Shown here piece by piece: positions 1,563 to 39,441 of a stretch of 42,042 bases of DNA; the stretch's first letter is position 1, and every line of letters begins with the position of its first letter. Source of the DNA: an uncultured Candidatus Saccharibacteria bacterium (lineage in GTDB: Bacteria; Patescibacteriota; Minisyncoccia; Phycocordibacterales; Zambryskibacteraceae); NCBI GenBank assembly GCA_964355645.1, contig CAYHDI010000001.1:158897-200938 (forward strand), written 5' to 3'. Below the pieces are notes generated by a model, which was given only the letters and a program-made list of their open reading frames with translations, did not search any database and had not been told where the DNA came from. Made by a program: the position numbers and the translations under genes.

Positions 1563-1600
1563 ATACGCTATAATTTATCTATAGCAAAAATATAGCGTAT
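1563..1600. repeat. 38-bp palindromic direct repeat, copy A (overlaps ATG of the PaaX/Cas2-like gene)
   Basis: ATACGCTATA-18nt-TATAGCGTAT; 32/38 identical to 2181-2218. Confidence 0.9.
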
Positions 1601-2165
1601 GGGCAAGTTAGAAGAGGGGAATAAAATAAGAATCAGAAGACGAGATTTACAACATGCAGTTTTGAATGCTGTTAAAATTACTGGTGTTTTAAGTATTGGA
1701 TTACTTGCTCCAAATGTGATTGGGGCGATGAGCAAACTCGGTATATTACCGAAACCACGACAGAAAGAATACGTGTCCTCTTCTGCTTCCAAACTTGTTA
1801 AACGTGGTTTACTTAAATTTGAAAATGGTCATTATAATCTCACAATTTCTGGAGAAAAACTTTTGCGTCGTTGGGAATTGGAAGATTATAAAATTAATAG
1901 ACCGAAGAAATGGGACAAAAAATGGCGAGTGATTATCTTCGATATTCCAGAAAAAAAGAGAAAAATGCGTCTGCAAATATCGTATCTTTTCAAACAATCA
2001 GGATTATATCGTTTACAGGATAGTGTTTGGGTTTATCCGTATGATTGTGAAGATATTATTGGACTATTGAAAACTGATTTCGGAGTAGGGAAGGATGTTT
2101 TGTATTTAATTGTTGATGAAATTGAAAACGATCGGCATTTGAAGGAAGAATTTCATCTTATATAA
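1599..2165 (+). CDS. PaaX-like protein: winged-helix region plus Cas2/VapD-like ferredoxin-fold domain
   Basis: LVKRGLL..YNLTISG wing; WDKKWRVIIFDIPE..GLYRLQDSVWVYPYD as in the PaaX central domain / Cas2-like fold. Confidence 0.8.
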   Translation: MGKLEEGNKIRIRRRDLQHAVLNAVKITGVLSIGLLAPNVIGAMSKLGILPKPRQKEYVSSSASKLVKRGLLKFENGHYNLTISGEKLLRRWELEDYKINRPKKWDKKWRVIIFDIPEKKRKMRLQISYLFKQSGLYRLQDSVWVYPYDCEDIIGLLKTDFGVGKDVLYLIVDEIENDRHLKEEFHLI

Positions 2166-2180
2166 ATTTGATATCCATTG

Positions 2181-2218
2181 ATACGTCATAAGTTGTCTAT
2201 AGCAAAATTATAACGTAT
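2181..2218. repeat. 38-bp palindromic direct repeat, copy B (15 nt after stop)
   Basis: ATACGTCATAAGTTGTCTATAGCAAAATTATAACGTAT. Confidence 0.9.
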
Positions 2219-20435: not shown

Positions 20436-20654
20436 ATGCACGTAAAAAAGGGAGACAACATCATAGTGCTTTCAGGAAAAGACAAAGGCAAGTCCGGGAA
20501 GATTTTGAAATCTATACCAAAGGAAATGAAAGTGATTGTCGAGGGTGTGAACATGCGGAAAGTTCACGAGAAGCCAAAGAAACGAGATGGCAAGGGGCAA
20601 ATCATTGAGAAAGCGATGCCGATTTATGCTTCGACCGTTAAATTGGTCAAATAA
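20436..20654 (+). CDS. rplX: 50S ribosomal protein L24 (short form)
   Basis: KKGD.IIVLSGKDKGK KOW motif, VEGVN. Confidence 0.97.
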   Translation: MHVKKGDNIIVLSGKDKGKSGKILKSIPKEMKVIVEGVNMRKVHEKPKKRDGKGQIIEKAMPIYASTVKLVK

Positions 20655-20682
20655 ATAGTTCGATAAACTCACTATAAGCAAA

Positions 20683-21216
20683 ATGGAAAATCTAAAAACA
20701 AAAATCAATAATGCGTTCAAAGCTCTGAAAGAAAGTCAGGGTTATAAGAACAAGATGCAGACACCGAAAATCATGAAGGTGGTGATTTCGGCCGGGGTTG
20801 GTTCGTTCAAAGACAAGAACAAGATGAAAGTTGTTGAAGATCGTCTCGCTCGCATCACTGGGCAGAAAGCCTCGGCTCGCGGAGCGAAGGTGGCTATTGC
20901 CAATTTCAAATCAAGACAAGGAGACATCATCGGCTATCAAGTCACTCTCCGTGGAAATAGAATGTATGATTTCCTTGAAAGGTTGATTCACATTTCTCTC
21001 CCTCGAACCAAGGACTTTCGGGGTATCAATCGAACCTCTGCAGATGAGATGGGGAACTATACCTTAGGCATCAAAGAACACAACATTTTCCCTGAAACCG
21101 CCGATGAAGAATTGAAGGACGTTTTCGGCCTGGCCATCACTATTGTCACTTCTGCCAAATCCAAATCCGAAGTTGTCGCGTTTCTAGAATATCTTGGGTT
21201 TCCGTTTAAGAAATAG
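20683..21216 (+). CDS. rplE: 50S ribosomal protein L5
   Basis: ITGQK, VTLRG, PRTKDFRG, GNYTLGIKE. Confidence 0.99.
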   Translation: MENLKTKINNAFKALKESQGYKNKMQTPKIMKVVISAGVGSFKDKNKMKVVEDRLARITGQKASARGAKVAIANFKSRQGDIIGYQVTLRGNRMYDFLERLIHISLPRTKDFRGINRTSADEMGNYTLGIKEHNIFPETADEELKDVFGLAITIVTSAKSKSEVVAFLEYLGFPFKK

Positions 21217-23059: not shown

Positions 23060-23593
23060 ATGTCACGCATAGGAAAACAAATCATTAATCTTCCAGAGAA
23101 AACCGAGATTACTATCTCGGCGGATAGAGTGTCGATCAAAGGACCTTTGGGTGAACTTTCTCTCAAAATCGATCCTATCATTGAGATCAAACTTGATGGA
23201 CGCGATGTGACTGTGGTTCCAAAGCGTATGACTCTTGAATCACGAGCCCTCTGGGGAACTTATGCTTCACATTTGAAAAATATGGTCGCGGGTGTGAATA
23301 AACCTTTCGAGAAGAAACTTATTCTCGAAGGAATTGGTTTTAAATCTGAAGTGAAAGGGGATAAAATTGTTTTCGCCCTTGGATTTTCTCATCCGGTTAA
23401 CATTGAAATCCCAAAAGATTTGAAAGTGACTGCAGAAAAAAATATCATCACTGTTTCAGGCCCGAGCAAAGAATTGGTCGGAGAATTTACAGCCAAGCTT
23501 CGTGCTTTGAAAAAGCCAGAGCCGTACAAAGGCAAGGGTATGAGATATGATACAGAAGTGATTAAGCGCAAACAGGGCAAGAAATCCGCCTAG
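23060..23593 (+). CDS. rplF: 50S ribosomal protein L6
   Basis: MSRIGK, LGFSHP, PEPYKGKG. Confidence 0.99.
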   Translation: MSRIGKQIINLPEKTEITISADRVSIKGPLGELSLKIDPIIEIKLDGRDVTVVPKRMTLESRALWGTYASHLKNMVAGVNKPFEKKLILEGIGFKSEVKGDKIVFALGFSHPVNIEIPKDLKVTAEKNIITVSGPSKELVGEFTAKLRALKKPEPYKGKGMRYDTEVIKRKQGKKSA

Positions 23594-23621
23594 TTCGACA
23601 AGCTCACTACAAACAAACAAC

Positions 23622-23936
23622 ATGACCACCAACAAAGAAAAACGAGATAGAAACCACAAGAAAATCCGAGCGAGGATTTCCGGCACCTCGAAGCGCCCTA
23701 GACTTTCTGTTTTCAAATCAAATGTTGCCTTATATGTTCAACTCATTGATGATGAAAATGGGAAGACTCTCGCGCAAGCGAAGGGTAAGGATCCAAAAAA
23801 AGTTGGTGCGGAAATTGCCAAACTCGGTTTGGTGAAGAAAATTAATCATATAGTTTTCGATCGAGGCGGATATATTTATACAGGCAAGATCGAAGCTTTG
23901 GCTAACGCAGCTCGAGAAGGAGGACTTAAATTCTAA
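23622..23936 (+). CDS. rplR: 50S ribosomal protein L18
   Basis: RPRLSVFKSN, VFDRGGY, AREGGLKF. Confidence 0.98.
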   Translation: MTTNKEKRDRNHKKIRARISGTSKRPRLSVFKSNVALYVQLIDDENGKTLAQAKGKDPKKVGAEIAKLGLVKKINHIVFDRGGYIYTGKIEALANAAREGGLKF

Positions 23937-23939
23937 AAC

Positions 23940-24575
23940 ATGGACGAAACAACAAAAACAATTCCAGAAATCATACTCCCGACGGACAAAGTCGTCGGGA
24001 CTCCGACCCCTGCGGGCGGCGGAGCGGCTCAAAACACCCGTCCACAATCTCGTGATACACGTGGAGATAGTCACGGTGGAAGAAAACCAAACCGTCGTGG
24101 ACCTCGTCGCGATGCTCGAACTAAACCCGAATTCGATCAGAAAATTGTCAGCCTCAGACGCGTGACCCGTGTGACTTCCGGAGGCCGAAGATTTGCTTTC
24201 TCCGTTTGTGTTGTGGCCGGCAACAGAAAAGGAAGTGTTGGAGTAGGACTCGGGAAGGCCGGAGATACTCCTTTGGCCATCGAGAAAGCTTTTCGTGATG
24301 CGAAGAAAAACATGATTGTGGTGAACACGACGAAGAACATGTCTATTCCTCATGAGATTGAAGCCAAGTTCTCTGCTTCGAGAGTGGTTATCAGGCCGGC
24401 TCCAGGCAAAGGAATTCTCGCCGGAAGTTCTGTGCGTACCGTTTTGGAATTGGCTGGTCTTCGAGAAGTGTCGGCTAAGCTTCTCTCAAGAAGCAAGAAC
24501 GGGATGAACAACGCTGAAGCCGCCATTTCCGCCCTCAAACAACTCGAACGTACCAAGATAAGACATTCAAAATAG
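23940..24575 (+). CDS. rpsE: 30S ribosomal protein S5 with long N-terminal extension
   Basis: RVTRVTSGGR, VGVGLGKA, PAPGKG. Confidence 0.98.
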   Translation: MDETTKTIPEIILPTDKVVGTPTPAGGGAAQNTRPQSRDTRGDSHGGRKPNRRGPRRDARTKPEFDQKIVSLRRVTRVTSGGRRFAFSVCVVAGNRKGSVGVGLGKAGDTPLAIEKAFRDAKKNMIVVNTTKNMSIPHEIEAKFSASRVVIRPAPGKGILAGSSVRTVLELAGLREVSAKLLSRSKNGMNNAEAAISALKQLERTKIRHSK

Positions 24576-24602
24576 TTCGATTAACTCACTATAAATAATT
24601 TT

Positions 24603-25040
24603 ATGCAACTTCACACTCTTAAGGCGAAAACGAAGCGTGTACTCTCCAAACAGGTTGGGCGTGGTGGTACTCGGGGCAAAACTTCCGGTCGAGGAACGAA
24701 GGGTCAGAATGCTCGTGCCGGACACAAGAATCGTCCTGAACTTCGAGACTTCATAAAGCGCTTCCCCAAACTTCGTGGACGCGGAGTTTCACCTTTCAAA
24801 TCCAAGCAGACCAAACCGTTTGTACTCAATCTTGGCTCAATAGACAAAGCTTTTAAGGCAGGCGAAGTGGTTAACCCAAAATCACTTTTGGAGAACAAAG
24901 TTGTCTCATCGAAGAATGCTTCTTCTAAAATTAAAATTCTTGGCACTGGCGAATTAACCAAGGCCCTTTCATTTGAAGGATTGATTGTTTCCAAAAGTGC
25001 AGAGAAGAAAATTGTTTCTGCGGGTGGTAAAATAAAATAG
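24603..25040 (+). CDS. rplO: 50S ribosomal protein L15
   Basis: GRGGTRGKTSGRGTKGQNAR, KILGTG. Confidence 0.98.
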   Translation: MQLHTLKAKTKRVLSKQVGRGGTRGKTSGRGTKGQNARAGHKNRPELRDFIKRFPKLRGRGVSPFKSKQTKPFVLNLGSIDKAFKAGEVVNPKSLLENKVVSSKNASSKIKILGTGELTKALSFEGLIVSKSAEKKIVSAGGKIK

Positions 25041-25064
25041 TTCGATATACTCACTATAAATAAC

Positions 25065-26336
25065 ATGAAAGAGTTTAGTTCTAAACTTAGATTAATTTTC
25101 GGAGATACAATTCTTCGAAAGAGAATTCTCATCACTCTTGGGCTTTTGGTTATTTCCAGAATCTTAGCTGTTATTCCAATTCCGGGGATTGATTCGGATC
25201 ATCTTCAAGCTTTGTTTTCAGGTAATCAATTTTTAAGCTTGTTAAATGTTTTCTCTGGTGGTGGTCTTTCTAATCTCTCAATCGTGATGCTCGGAGTAGG
25301 TCCGTACATCACGGGCTCGATTATTATGCAACTTTTGACTTTGATGGTTCCAAAGTTAAAAGCCATGTATCAAGAAGAAGGGGATGCCGGTCGTCGAAGA
25401 TTTACTCAGTACTCTCGTCTTTTGACTGTACCCCTTGCGCTTCTTCAAGGTTTCGCTTTCATTACTCTCTTTCAAAAACAATCAGTGCTTGGAATTTTGA
25501 GCCCTTCACAACTCTTCGTTGATTTGATGATTATTACGGCTGGTTCGATGCTTCTTGTTTGGGTTGGAGAACTGATTTCTGAATTCGGTGCAGGCAATGG
25601 CGTTTCTCTTATCATTTTTGCTGGTATCGTCTCAAGTTTGCCGACGAACATTGGACAATTGATTTTCACTTTTGATTTGGCTCAACTTCCGGTTTACCTC
25701 GTTTCCATTGCTCTCATCCTTATAGTTATCTTTGGAGTAGTATTTGTGACCGAGGCTGAACGTCCAATCCCAGTGACTTATGCCAAACAGATTCGAGGCG
25801 GAAATATTTCCGGCGGGGTTTCCACCTATCTTCCACTTAGAGTAAACCAAGCTGGTGTGATTCCGATTATCTTCGCCCTCTCGATTCTTCTTTTCCCTCA
25901 AATGATTTTGCAATTTCTCACTACAGCGAAGATTGTGGCTGTCGCCAACATATCAACCTCGCTTCTGGCCATTGTGAACAACCAATGGTTTTATGGTGTG
26001 GCTTACTTCGTCTTAGTTGTTCTTTTCACCTATTTCTACACCGCTATCACCTTCGATCCTGATCAGATAGCCACGAATCTTCAGAAATCTGGAGCCTTTA
26101 TTCCCGGGGTTCGTCCGGGGGATTCTACCTCCCAACACATCTCAAGGATTTTGACTCGTCTCACTCTTGTTGGAGCACTTTTCCTCGGAGCTATTGCTGT
26201 TCTGCCTTTGATTCTACGCGGAGTTACTGGTATTCAGTCTCTGGCCATAGGAGGAACAGCCCTTCTCATTGTTGTCTCAGTAGTTATAGACTTGGTGAAG
26301 AAAATCGATGCTCAAGTTTCCGCGAGAGAATACTAG
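25065..26336 (+). CDS. secY: Preprotein translocase subunit SecY
   Basis: LGVGPYITGSII, GNGVSLIIFAG, AGVIPIIFA, IPGVRPG. Confidence 0.99.
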   Translation: MKEFSSKLRLIFGDTILRKRILITLGLLVISRILAVIPIPGIDSDHLQALFSGNQFLSLLNVFSGGGLSNLSIVMLGVGPYITGSIIMQLLTLMVPKLKAMYQEEGDAGRRRFTQYSRLLTVPLALLQGFAFITLFQKQSVLGILSPSQLFVDLMIITAGSMLLVWVGELISEFGAGNGVSLIIFAGIVSSLPTNIGQLIFTFDLAQLPVYLVSIALILIVIFGVVFVTEAERPIPVTYAKQIRGGNISGGVSTYLPLRVNQAGVIPIIFALSILLFPQMILQFLTTAKIVAVANISTSLLAIVNNQWFYGVAYFVLVVLFTYFYTAITFDPDQIATNLQKSGAFIPGVRPGDSTSQHISRILTRLTLVGALFLGAIAVLPLILRGVTGIQSLAIGGTALLIVVSVVIDLVKKIDAQVSAREY

Positions 26337-31396: not shown

Positions 31397-32434
<1,038 letters not shown>

Positions 32435-32494
32435 AAAATTATAATCTTTCTAACTATATTCACAACTCAATCATTTGATTTTTATGCTATACTA

Positions 32495-32520
32495 ATAACA
32501 TACGATATATCGTATGTTAT
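32495..32520. repeat. Perfect 26-bp palindrome, copy A (overlaps ATG)
   Basis: ATAACATACGATATATCGTATGTTAT. Confidence 0.97.
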
Positions 32521-32950
32521 GCCACATATTTCAAAAAGAAATTTACGATTAAAACAATTAGAAAATCTTCAATCCGAACTTTTAAATTCCGTTGAGCGTT
32601 CATTTGATAATAACAAAGGAAGACAAGTTTGGGGAGAATTTTTCTCCCGAACTGAAAGGATTATGTTTGCCAAAAGGCTAGCCGTGATCGCCATGCTTTC
32701 CAAAGGTGTATCAGCGCACATGATTGCTGAGGCACTAGGAATGAGCCCATCCACAACTGAACGGATGTCTATACAATACGAAAAAGGGAAATATTTTTAT
32801 ATTATCAAAGAGGCTCTAGGCAAGAAGGATGTTTGGGATATTATCCAAGATATTTTAACCGTGGGAGGTATTATGCCGCCCAGAGCCGGCGGGAAGCGTT
32901 GGAGATCATTTGATAAAGCTGTCCGTAAAGATAAACTTAAAAATAGTTAA
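32519..32950 (+). CDS. TrpR/YerC-YecD-like helix-turn-helix protein
   Basis: FSRTERIMFAKRLAVIAML..GVSAHMIAEALGMSPSTTER. Confidence 0.8.
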   Translation: MPHISKRNLRLKQLENLQSELLNSVERSFDNNKGRQVWGEFFSRTERIMFAKRLAVIAMLSKGVSAHMIAEALGMSPSTTERMSIQYEKGKYFYIIKEALGKKDVWDIIQDILTVGGIMPPRAGGKRWRSFDKAVRKDKLKNS

Positions 32951-32964
32951 AAACGGTTAATGAG

Positions 32965-32990
32965 ATAACATACGATATATCGTATGTTGT
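32965..32990. repeat. 26-bp palindrome, copy B (14 nt after stop)
   Basis: ATAACATACGATATATCGTATGTTGT; 25/26 identical to copy A. Confidence 0.97.
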
Positions 32991-33276
32991 TGAACTAAGA
33001 GTTGTCTGTATATCAGTCCTTGCAAATTCTGGTGGGTGGGGTAAATTGAGTATATACAAATTTAATCAAAAATTATGGGAGCGGAATCATTTAATGCAGA
33101 GCCGGTCGTTCCAGATGAATCAGAAAGAGTTGAAGATGAGGTTAAAGCAGAATGTCAGGTGCTTGGACTGAGGACCGGGCAAAATTAGAAGGAGAAGCAG
33201 ACGCAAGATATTCTTCGTTTTTTGATGAAAAACGCAGACGTATGCAAGGAAAGTAAAATTTTAATGGCAAATAACA

Positions 33277-33305
33277 CAAAAAATCCGGTTGAACCGGATT
33301 TTTTG
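33277..33305. terminator. Bidirectional terminator after rplT
   Basis: CAAAAAATCCGGTT-G-AACCGGATTTTTTG. Confidence 0.8.
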
Positions 33306-33650
33306 TTATTTCGTTGCTTCGAGGATTTTCTTGAAGGTTTCGGGATTCTTCTCAGCGAGGAGAGCGAGAATTTTCCTGTCTATAGCAATTTCTTTCTTTT
33401 TTAAAGCGGAAATAAATTTGGAATAAGAGACACCATTTTCTTTTAGAATTGCACTAATACGAACATTCCAAAGTCGTCTGAAATCACCCTTCTTGTCCTT
33501 GCGATGGGCGAATGAATAAGTGCCGGCATGAAAAATGGCTTCGTTTGCTTGTCGTTCCTTCGTCGAACGACCGTGTCTGTAGCCCTTAACCTTTCTTAAA
33601 ATATTTTTTCTGGATTTGAGAGCATTTACCCCCTTTTTTACTCTGGTCAT
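33306..33650 (-). CDS. rplT: 50S ribosomal protein L20
   Basis: MTRVKKG, FRRLWNVRI, SYSKFI, DRKILA. Confidence 0.99.
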   Translation of the reverse strand: MTRVKKGVNALKSRKNILRKVKGYRHGRSTKERQANEAIFHAGTYSFAHRKDKKGDFRRLWNVRISAILKENGVSYSKFISALKKKEIAIDRKILALLAEKNPETFKKILEATK

Positions 33651-35653: not shown

Positions 35654-36046
35654 TGGTGGAGATGCCGGGAATCGAACCCGGGTGCAAAGTGAGAACGGAT
35701 TGAATTCTACGCGAAGTAGATTGCTTCGTTTGATTCGAATTAGAAAGTACAAAACAAACGAAAGCCCTTCTAACTCTATCCTCTAAGTTTAGTCCCGACT
35801 CGAGGAGGCGTCGGGACAGAGTCCCGAATATTCCACAGCATTCTTAGCACGAGACACTCTAGGAAGCCATGCGCACGAGTGAGCTTACGCTCGAACAGGT
35901 ACGAACTGGAAATCGTTCATACTGAAGTATGGCGATGTCCTAGCAAAAGTTGATTTTGCAGTTGAGTTTTGAAGCGGATTAAGGAGTCACTTCAGCTCCT
36001 TCGCGCATCAATCCGAACGATCTCCTTGTCTAGGCCGATCATCCCC
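35654..36046 (-). ncRNA. ssrA: tmRNA
   Basis: 5' GGGGATG pairs with CATCTCC-ACCA 3' (G3-U wobble); T-arm CCGGGTTCGATTCCCGG; directly downstream of smpB; tag ORF 35959-35885. Confidence 0.96.
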
Positions 36047-39339: not shown

Positions 39340-39367
39340 TCAAATAATACTAACACAACTTTTCTTG

Positions 39368-39441
39368 TCCGCCCTCCACGATTCGAACGTGGGACCCTCG
39401 AGGTATAAGCTCGATGCTCTAACCAACTGAGCTAAGGGCGG
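39368..39441 (-). tRNA. tRNA-Ile, anticodon UAU; CCA not encoded
   Basis: CCGCCCT/AGGGCGG acceptor stem, D-arm GCTC-AGTTGGTTA-GAGC, anticodon arm TCGAG-CTTATAC-CTCGA, T-arm CCACG-TTCGAAT-CGTGG. Confidence 0.95.

Follow-up and report, generated by a model that had tools for sequence, protein, structure and literature searches.

In the stretch of DNA analysed here (hereafter the window; 42,042 nucleotides, G000:C1:158897-200938), which comes from the 549,535-bp genome of an ultra-small groundwater bacterium (G000; 9 contigs, 100% complete), we found a gene for a helix-turn-helix (HTH) protein of the TrpR fold that is bracketed by two near-identical copies of a 26-bp palindrome, one running into its start codon and the other lying shortly after its stop codon. 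This bracket is a trait of the whole protein family and no local accident. We favour the reading, at a probability of about 0.5, that the gene's product is an autorepressor which binds the palindrome as a dimer and which, through the two flanking sites, would shut off and insulate its own unit, and that solo copies of the palindrome would be dispersed in the manner of repetitive extragenic palindromic (REP) sequences.

The upstream palindrome, ATAACATACGATATATCGTATGTTAT, is perfect, its final two bases are the AT of the ATG start codon, and it stands directly behind a TGn-extended -10 box, TGCTATACT (Table 1). The downstream copy departs from it at one position. Both matches, and their placement relative to the gene, confirm what the initial annotation, made from the sequence alone, had described. 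Allowing up to three mismatches, we found no further match to ATAACATACGATATATCGTATGTTAT in the window, and none of 100 dinucleotide shuffles yielded two matches. The palindrome has a G+C content of 23%, and the downstream copy is directly followed by GUUGAACUAAG. Transcription is predicted to start at about 32499-32501, within the left arm of the upstream palindrome; by eye, no Shine-Dalgarno sequence was seen before the ATG.

The protein itself was assigned to the TrpR/YerC fold by sequence and by predicted structure. The Pfam model Trp_repressor (PF01371) scored the window protein at 26.0 bits (E = 9.6e-6; cut-off 27 bits) and matched all 81 aligned relatives at E <= 0.01, the best of them at 9e-13. 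The best solved relatives by family profile were the YerC-type "putative Trp repressors" 3frw, 3kor and 3g1c (E = 6e-7 to 5e-6), while the TIGR02531 (YerC/YecD) profile gave the window protein 13.9 bits, below its cut-off of 42.2 bits. An AlphaFold2 (AF2) model with a predicted local distance difference test score (pLDDT) of 81.8 was all-helical, with eight helices and a central HTH; its top Foldseek matches were chains of E. coli TrpR, with a probability of 1.0 and a template modelling (TM) score of 0.6-0.72 on the target, and no match reached E <= 0.001. As a homodimer, the protein was predicted with a score of 0.82 against 0.00 for the best control, with at least 94% of contacts shared by three runs, a partner pLDDT of at least 78, and an interface formed by residues 6-55 and 91-115. 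Among solved structures, 20 of 30 homodimers and 1 of 23 monomers reach the mark used for this prediction, and the pass may reflect no more than likeness, as TrpR dimers are already solved.

The family is large, comprising 1,503 clusters at 50% identity (E <= 1e-10), with lengths of about 113-194 aa among the best 150. Its N-terminus, MPH[IV]S, is almost invariant, and its C-terminal tail is basic with the motif PPRxGRGRW. No nuclease or recombinase domain was found in the window protein or in 81 relatives, all matches being to HTH families; the Resolvase domain was likewise absent from the 81 members, with weak matches to HTH_7 in 3/81. Among viral contigs, 118 pattern matches included no confirmed relative (0). 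The initial annotation was also right that no trp genes are nearby, the neighbours being a beta-CASP RNase gene, membrane open reading frames (ORFs) and rplT-rpmI-infC. Moreover, Trp_syntA (tryptophan synthase alpha) had no match in the whole G000 genome and matched in 14/14 control genomes; since the genome lacks this chain, the window protein is not a Trp repressor by function.

To score the bracket across the family, we compared the 160 nt ahead of each gene's start codon with the 160 nt behind its stop codon and took the highest-scoring match without gaps. The sample consisted of 80 of 211 confirmed relatives from a species-representative genome collection, and 87 loci from Patescibacteria/Paceibacteria were scored in all (85 distinct, with L006 = L034 and L007 = L092; L070 has an internal stop and L093 lacks the usual N-terminus). 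A bracketing palindrome pair scored at least 16 in 76/87 loci and at least 14 in 80/87. When the same loci were shifted by 400 nt, 1/170 reached 16; when the upstream region of one locus was compared with the downstream region of others, 19/261 did so, because related loci have a palindrome in common. Measured from the ATG, the centre of the first palindrome is at a median distance of 25 nt upstream (at most 30 nt in 53/76 loci); measured from the stop, that of the second is at a median distance of 33.5 nt downstream (at most 50 nt in 60/76). G000 has two paralogues of the window gene (52% and 49% identical), each bracketed by its own, different palindrome, one of which likewise has the start codon's AT as its last two bases, and all of six more homologues in related genomes are bracketed.

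Both copies of the palindrome are evidently under selection. Among five orthologous units, whose proteins are 57-76% identical to the window protein, 22/26 columns of the upstream and 23/26 columns of the downstream palindrome are invariant. Of the 47 columns in each flank, by comparison, 0 and 2 are invariant beside the upstream copy and 3 and 3 beside the downstream copy. The initial annotation had suggested that the downstream copy arose by a recent site duplication on insertion; we rule this out because both copies are conserved among these divergent orthologues, and the bracket is present in 76/87 loci.

In relatives from the clade of the window gene (L031, L032, L033 and L034), the distance from the palindrome centre leftwards to the beginning of the TGn-extended -10 is 20-21 nt, as in the window; in the largest clade, TGATATACT falls within the right arm of the upstream copy in 35/76 loci and of the downstream copy in 27/76. 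The upstream copy thus overlaps or abuts the core promoter, the position expected of an autorepressor's operator, and the annotation's proposal of an autoregulatory operator gains from this. It also gains from the way in which the site cores track residues of the recognition helix. The half-sites have a central TATA/ATATAT in common and vary in their arms: TATCG cores are paired with Ser78 in 32/32, Ala78 with Arg82 is paired with TATGAT cores in 14/14, and Thr78 with Lys82 is mostly paired with TxxTGT cores. L060 and L065 (Thr78/Lys82) have TGT-type cores inside a clade with otherwise similar proteins and outer arms. Furthermore, paralogues always differ in half-site, in G000 and in the five other metagenome-assembled genome (MAG) assemblies that were sampled twice.

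Could the palindromes instead act as RNA hairpins, with a stabiliser or translation control at the 5' end and a terminator at the 3' end, their likeness being incidental or maintained by conversion? The 3' copy does fold at -13 kcal/mol (z -3.7), and a 7-bp hairpin is possible in the predicted 5' leader; the full 5' hairpin would not be transcribed, because the predicted transcript start lies within the 5' palindrome. As an intrinsic terminator the downstream palindrome fails, having no GC-rich stem and no U tract, and a terminator scan gave only the hairpin at 33276-33306 in this region. Arm mismatches showed no sense-strand excess of the G-U-compatible kind (18 GT vs 40 AC upstream, 30 vs 21 downstream), and no Rfam family matched the locus region, including 32996-33243, at the gathering score. 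This explanation, which leaves unaccounted for the tracking of HTH residues by the site cores, was rejected as highly improbable on the missing U tract, the missing G-U bias and the absence of an Rfam match.

Next to the downstream copy lies a promoter-like element that may or may not belong to the unit; it was read by eye and is not listed by the sequence scan. A similar element (TTGTAA...TATATT) occurs at the same place in G011, ahead of a 127-aa ORF, whereas in G000 only ORFs of 34-41 aa follow; the only one of these that was scanned, of 37 aa at 33075-33188, had no family match. From the downstream palindrome to the rplT terminator the DNA is ORF-poor, and one contig of an RNA library (metatranscriptome; 248 nt, 100% identity, depth 2) covers this part, a weak hint at best. 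No RNA-library contig fell on the TrpR-like gene, which shows neither the expression of the gene nor its silence.

We then characterized the genomic neighbourhood of the units, calling neighbours crudely as the longest ORFs of at least 80 aa. The unit lies between convergent genes in 44/80 loci; the left neighbour is co-directional in 62/80, and the right neighbour is convergent in 52/80, its stop lying at a median distance of 54 nt from the downstream copy, and co-directional in 28/80. Recurrent settings, with family names checked, are ThrRS>[unit]<GyrB (15 and 13 loci), GAPDH>[unit]>RpiB and PfkB<[unit]>FBA. These data bear on a further possibility, namely that the protein is, at this locus, an ordinary local transcription factor and the downstream copy the operator of the next promoter; the initial annotation had named this role of the downstream copy as one that would refute its own reading, and the case applies only in part. 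The element common to G000 and G011, the RNA-library contig, and the co-directional loci in which copies precede genes of sugar metabolism would suit such a role. However, the predicted start of the promoter at 33020-33047 is some 75 nt downstream from the centre of the downstream copy, which would not occlude it from there, the ORFs behind this promoter in G000 are minimal, and solos at stop codons are left unexplained. Because the next gene is convergent in most relatives, being the operator of a next promoter is not the general role of this copy. For this locus we think the reading unlikely.

At its own locus, the window unit sits between the beta-CASP RNase gene and rplT (junction 31397-33305). 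Among 21 congeners with rplT, the unit is present at this junction in 3 (G000, G005 and G011) and missing there in 18: in 9/21 just 6-64 nt separate the beta-CASP and rplT stop codons, 5/21 have a 174-202-nt stretch that resembles a 54-aa ORF of G005 (the ORF was translated in G005 only), 2/21 have two minus-strand ORFs at the junction, like G000, and 1/21 has a 467-aa ORF. In G014 (L022, G014:C23), a Y1_Tnp gene with its own GC-rich flanking hairpins occupies this junction. Convergent junctions seem to be common landing places for several kinds of repeat-flanked genes. The TrpR-like gene was found in 4/21 congeners, with G018 counted among the non-matches. The nearest kin of G000, judged by rplT identity, are not G005 and G011 (82%) (compare G001, 92%, and G004, 89%), so several gains or losses are required to explain where the unit occurs.

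The palindrome also occurs as scattered solo copies. The five genomes with the window's specificity hold 4-5 sites each, two flanking and 2-3 solo, and no site of this specificity was found in six congeners without the gene (0/6); a reversed-pattern control gave 0 in all genomes. There are two solos in G000, 2-3 each in G005, G011, G044 and G045, four in G041, two in G042 and none (0) in G043. In all five genomes with this specificity, the solos lie mostly at stop codons or inside reverse-transcriptase (RT) genes of diversity-generating retroelements (DGRs). One G000 solo is a perfect 28-mer (C1:6230-6257) exactly between the convergent stop codons of a glycosyltransferase gene and ftsW/rodA, and is missing from 17/17 orthologous junctions, those of G005 and G011 included; the other is a two-mismatch copy at the deletion junction of a truncated RT gene. 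Of the 11 solos of G005, G011, G044 and G045, four are in RT-type ORFs, five overlap a stop codon or are within 8 nt of one, and the remaining two are 33 nt and 126 nt from a stop. G041, G042 and G043 have other specificities, and all solos of the first two are intergenic beside terminator-like hairpins (by eye); one G042 solo lies between ORFs resembling thrS and gyrB (by eye), a junction where full units are found in 13-15 other genomes.

Two kinds of coding sequence carry palindromes internally. In eight congeneric RT genes the segment after YADD is equal in length, and five of them have a TrpR-type palindrome there, which begins at one or the other of two distances from YADD (21 nt or about 48 nt) and leaves the protein length unchanged. 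The second RT copy of G000 lacks 93 residues, and the deletion ends at a TrpR-type palindrome. The RT is present in 4/5 congeners with the TrpR-like gene and in 8/22 overall, which is merely a lead, since kin are not independent. Inside a FAD-linked oxidase gene, a perfect 20-bp palindrome at G000:C3:10622-10641, TACTACGATATATCGTAGTA, with the family core CGATATATCG, adds four in-frame residues (TTIY within NDNTTIYRSNNEP) and is missing from 20/20 congeneric orthologues. A pal2-like "site" in miaA (C2:54174, 3 mismatches) was not counted as a solo; it is native coding sequence, with no indel relative to 19 orthologues.

The palindrome thus appears also to be copied around the genome in a REP-like way, and the solos can be read more radically. 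The TrpR-like protein may be the non-catalytic partner of a system like that of REPs and their associated tyrosine transposases (RAYTs), serving as a dedicated binder for the spread, maintenance or taming of the repeat, with a host or RAYT enzyme doing the cutting and joining. The layout equals that of three Y1-transposase-like and three PaaX-like genes in G000, each with its own repeats, and in G014 a Y1_Tnp gene takes the very site of the TrpR-like unit. The solos are perfect, lineage-specific and tied to the cognate gene (5/5 vs 0/6), and the glycosyltransferase/ftsW junction, the FAD oxidase and the thrS/gyrB-like junction of G042 all count in its favour. On the other hand, the protein matches HTH families alone, and 0-4 solos per genome is tiny next to REPs, which number tens to hundreds per genome. 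The sites inside RT genes swap native codons without a change of length at two positions, which site selection fits equally well; the miaA match is no insertion at all, and no family member was found in viral contigs. We regard this explanation as possible, though on balance doubtful.

If the two copies were sites of recombination, they could be attL/attR-like products of a small circular cassette that integrates at a solo palindrome, or inversion sites like those of Hin/hix. Each of the two 26-bp sites around the gene does consist of 12-bp arms with a dinucleotide at the centre, and hix sites have the same form. Solo palindromes are found at the same kind of junction as units, and the four solos of G041 differ from its cassette copies at just two central bases. 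Against this stand the missing recombinase domain, a bracket that is stable across deep divergence, and three paralogues with three different sites, which makes a common host recombinase unlikely. We also looked for joints in Logan contigs of four sequencing runs and found neither deletion nor inversion joints, although contigs cannot show rare forms. A recombination origin of the pair is, in our judgment, very unlikely.

We return to the reading of an autorepressor with two flanking sites, keeping its steps conditional. The analysis shows the layout and its conservation in the family, selection on both copies, the fold of the protein and the tie between solos and the gene; beyond this, we infer that a dimeric TrpR-fold protein would bind the palindrome that flanks its own gene. 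The 5' copy abuts the -10 box and spans the position where transcription is predicted to start, and on this copy the protein would repress its own promoter; on the 3' copy, a second operator, it would form a roadblock that seals the unit from transcription coming from the usually convergent neighbour, and the 3' site may cooperate with the 5' site. Where the downstream gene is co-directional (about a third of loci), the 3' copy could also be that gene's operator. The same protein would most likely occupy the solo palindromes at gene ends or within coding sequence.

Several results weigh against this reading. The RNA data consist of a single contig of low depth, which lies next to the unit and not within it. 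The initial annotation had offered DNA looping as a role for the second copy; the centre-to-centre distances between the two palindromes (419-620 bp) show no helical phasing at 10.5 bp (Rayleigh p = 0.28), which leaves looping without support, and the p value of 0.026 at 10.0 bp is uncorrected across five periods tried. The annotation had also pointed to the flanks of homologues as the place to find cognate palindromes that co-vary with the recognition helix: the palindromes are there, and pairing of cores with helix residues is seen, but allowing for relatedness the covariation was not significant (sign-test median p = 0.5). The tree used for this omitted the helix columns and left just 3 and 5 independent pairs on supported branches, so that the covariation is suggestive, not proven. 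Finally, the solos are perfect 22-28-mers at non-orthologous places in related genomes, and together with the in-frame FAD-oxidase insertion this looks like the copy-and-paste of a mobile repeat and not like a slowly evolving regulon; a roadblock within a coding gene is not obviously of use.

A bolder combination, which we put forward tentatively and as doubtful on balance, would see here another, second kind of REP-like system (with RAYT and mini-PaaX counted, the third in this genome), where a sequence-specific HTH "guardian" and not a transposase would be paired with a palindrome that disperses. Protein and palindrome would co-diversify into orthogonal pairs, three in G000 and differing pairs in five other MAG assemblies, and palindromes would be planted at gene ends and in coding sequence, repeatedly after the YADD of DGR RTs, roadblocking those spots. 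In the part of the literature accessible to us (subscription journals were outside its coverage), we found no account of TrpR-like genes flanked by palindromes or of REP-like systems in Patescibacteria. If this proposal were true, Patescibacteria would wire and insulate transcription by mobile operators in genomes with almost no intergenic space.

The likely DNA target of each family member can be read from the flanks of its own gene. This offers hundreds of natural protein-operator pairs for a recognition code of the TrpR fold, and orthogonal repressor/operator parts, and it defines a large regulator family in poorly understood, uncultured bacteria. The layout points to protein roadblocks or insulators that separate transcription units where convergent genes share or abut stop codons. 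Three unrelated families (Y1 transposase, PaaX-like and TrpR-like) have the self-repeat-flanked design in one 550-kb genome, which raises the question of whether REP-type systems are broader than the transposase-based ones.

We also noted other repeat-flanked genes in the window and its genome (Table 1). The PaaX_M/Cas2-like gene shares the geometry of the TrpR-like gene, as the initial annotation had stated: its repeat is a split inverted repeat that contains TATAAT and ends in ATG, and in the downstream copy position 6 is changed jointly in both arms. It is one of three paralogues (188-189 aa), each with its own repeat pair (window 1563-2218, G000:C4:6104-6752 and G000:C1:29092-29719). Three ORFs with the IS200-like Y1 motif NHxHhh (by eye) are each flanked by a hairpin of their own (G000:C2:9239-9716, G000:C1:111581-112266 and G000:C2:1966-2720), and the hairpin CTAGCAAGAACSGTTCTTGCTAG of these ORFs has at least 13 copies in G000. 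A putative HicA/HicB toxin-antitoxin pair (by eye; overlapping ORFs of 69 and 72 aa, G000:C1:153583-154103) lies between identical 22-nt direct repeats, CAATGATAACAATTTTTACTGA. Motifs of 30-45 nt, among them AAATAGTTCGATnnACTCACTATAA, TTGACTTTTCTTTTGATATATGCTAGGAT and TTTTTTATTGACAAAA, recur right before several genes and are probably shared promoters.

Table 1. Coordinates of features at the TrpR-like locus, elsewhere in the window and in related genomes (window positions unless a genome and contig are given).
Feature	Position	Strand	Remarks
TrpR/YerC-fold HTH gene	32519..32950	+	143 aa; MPH[IV]S arm and basic PPRxGG/RxRW tail; Pfam, sequence relatives, AF2/Foldseek
Upstream palindrome ATAACATACGATATATCGTATGTTAT	32495..32520	.	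perfect, 13+13; exact match; likely operator
Downstream palindrome copy	32965..32990	.	25/26, 1 mismatch; 14 nt after stop; likely second binding site
Extended -10 box TGCTATACT	32485..32493	+	hexamer TATACT 32488-32493; one base 5' of palindrome; read from sequence
Promoter-like element	33020..33047	+	TTGCAA, 16 nt, TAAATT; 30 nt beyond downstream copy; by eye
RNA-library contig	32996-33243		beside the unit
PaaX_M/Cas2-like gene	1599-2165		38-nt inverted-repeat units 1563-1600 (ends in the AT of ATG) and 2181-2218, 84% alike
DGR-type RT genes with TrpR-type palindromes	G000:C5:12715, G000:C1:80329; G005:C13, G005:C38, G011:C44, G014:C25		
Recurring pre-gene motifs	20653-20688, 23588-23623, 24570-24605, 25035-25070; 15825-15869/16848-16892; 10929-10959/11970-12000		probably shared promoters
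tmRNA	35654-36046		tag AKSTFARTSPYFSMNDFQFVPVRA
tRNA-Ile	39367-39441		anticodon TAT

Several known systems resemble parts of this arrangement. In lambdoid immunity, the cI repressor gene lies between OL and OR, and operators of matching specificity co-vary with it as a module; TTF-I, mTERF and Reb1 each bind a unit at its promoter as well as at its 3' end and block polymerase. These are analogies, with no homology, another scale and no phage context (0 relatives in viral contigs). A serine invertase with a hix switch does not match: the window gene has no recombinase catalytic domain, and the contigs of the four runs, in which rare forms could escape notice, show no inverted forms.

Closer in structure is E. 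coli TrpR, which has the same fold (Foldseek probability 1.0) and forms an intertwined homodimer of the kind predicted here; in both, a palindromic site lies over the protein's own core promoter (trpO and the autoregulated trpR promoter in E. coli). Unlike in E. coli, there is no tryptophan pathway for the protein to control, as the genome lacks TrpA; the protein exceeds TrpR in length by about 35 aa and has the MPH[IV]S arm and the basic C-terminal tail, and the family's sites are near-perfect palindromes of 20-30 bp with a second copy after the stop. The closest solved sequences are those of YerC/YecD (HisR, Firmicutes; TIGR02531; 3frw, 3kor and 3g1c), small stand-alone TrpR-like HTH proteins. 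The window protein falls under the TIGR02531 cut-off and has no his or trp genes nearby, and the accessible text of PMC9413887, which treats these TrpR-related proteins of Firmicutes, describes no flanking palindrome pair for HisR.

In layout, the mini-PaaX unit, three of which occur in G000 and one of these in the window, is identical. Here too a repeat runs into the start codon and has its copy behind the stop; the protein differs in having a PaaX_M/Cas2-like fold with a winged helix, and the repeat is a 38-nt split inverted repeat, not a continuous palindrome. Beyond this genome, a comparison can be made with REP/RAYT (REPIN) systems (Bertels and Rainey 2011, PMC3116915; PMC3337134). The partner in the window is an HTH protein and not a Y1/HUH transposase (the G014 gene, our positive control, matches Y1_Tnp), there are just 0-4 solos per genome, and the palindromes of the window family are AT-rich and loopless. 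In common, as far as the accessible parts of those papers describe REP/RAYT systems, are a single-copy gene flanked by cognate palindromes with additional copies elsewhere in the genome, mostly vertical inheritance, and a protein and repeat that diversify together.

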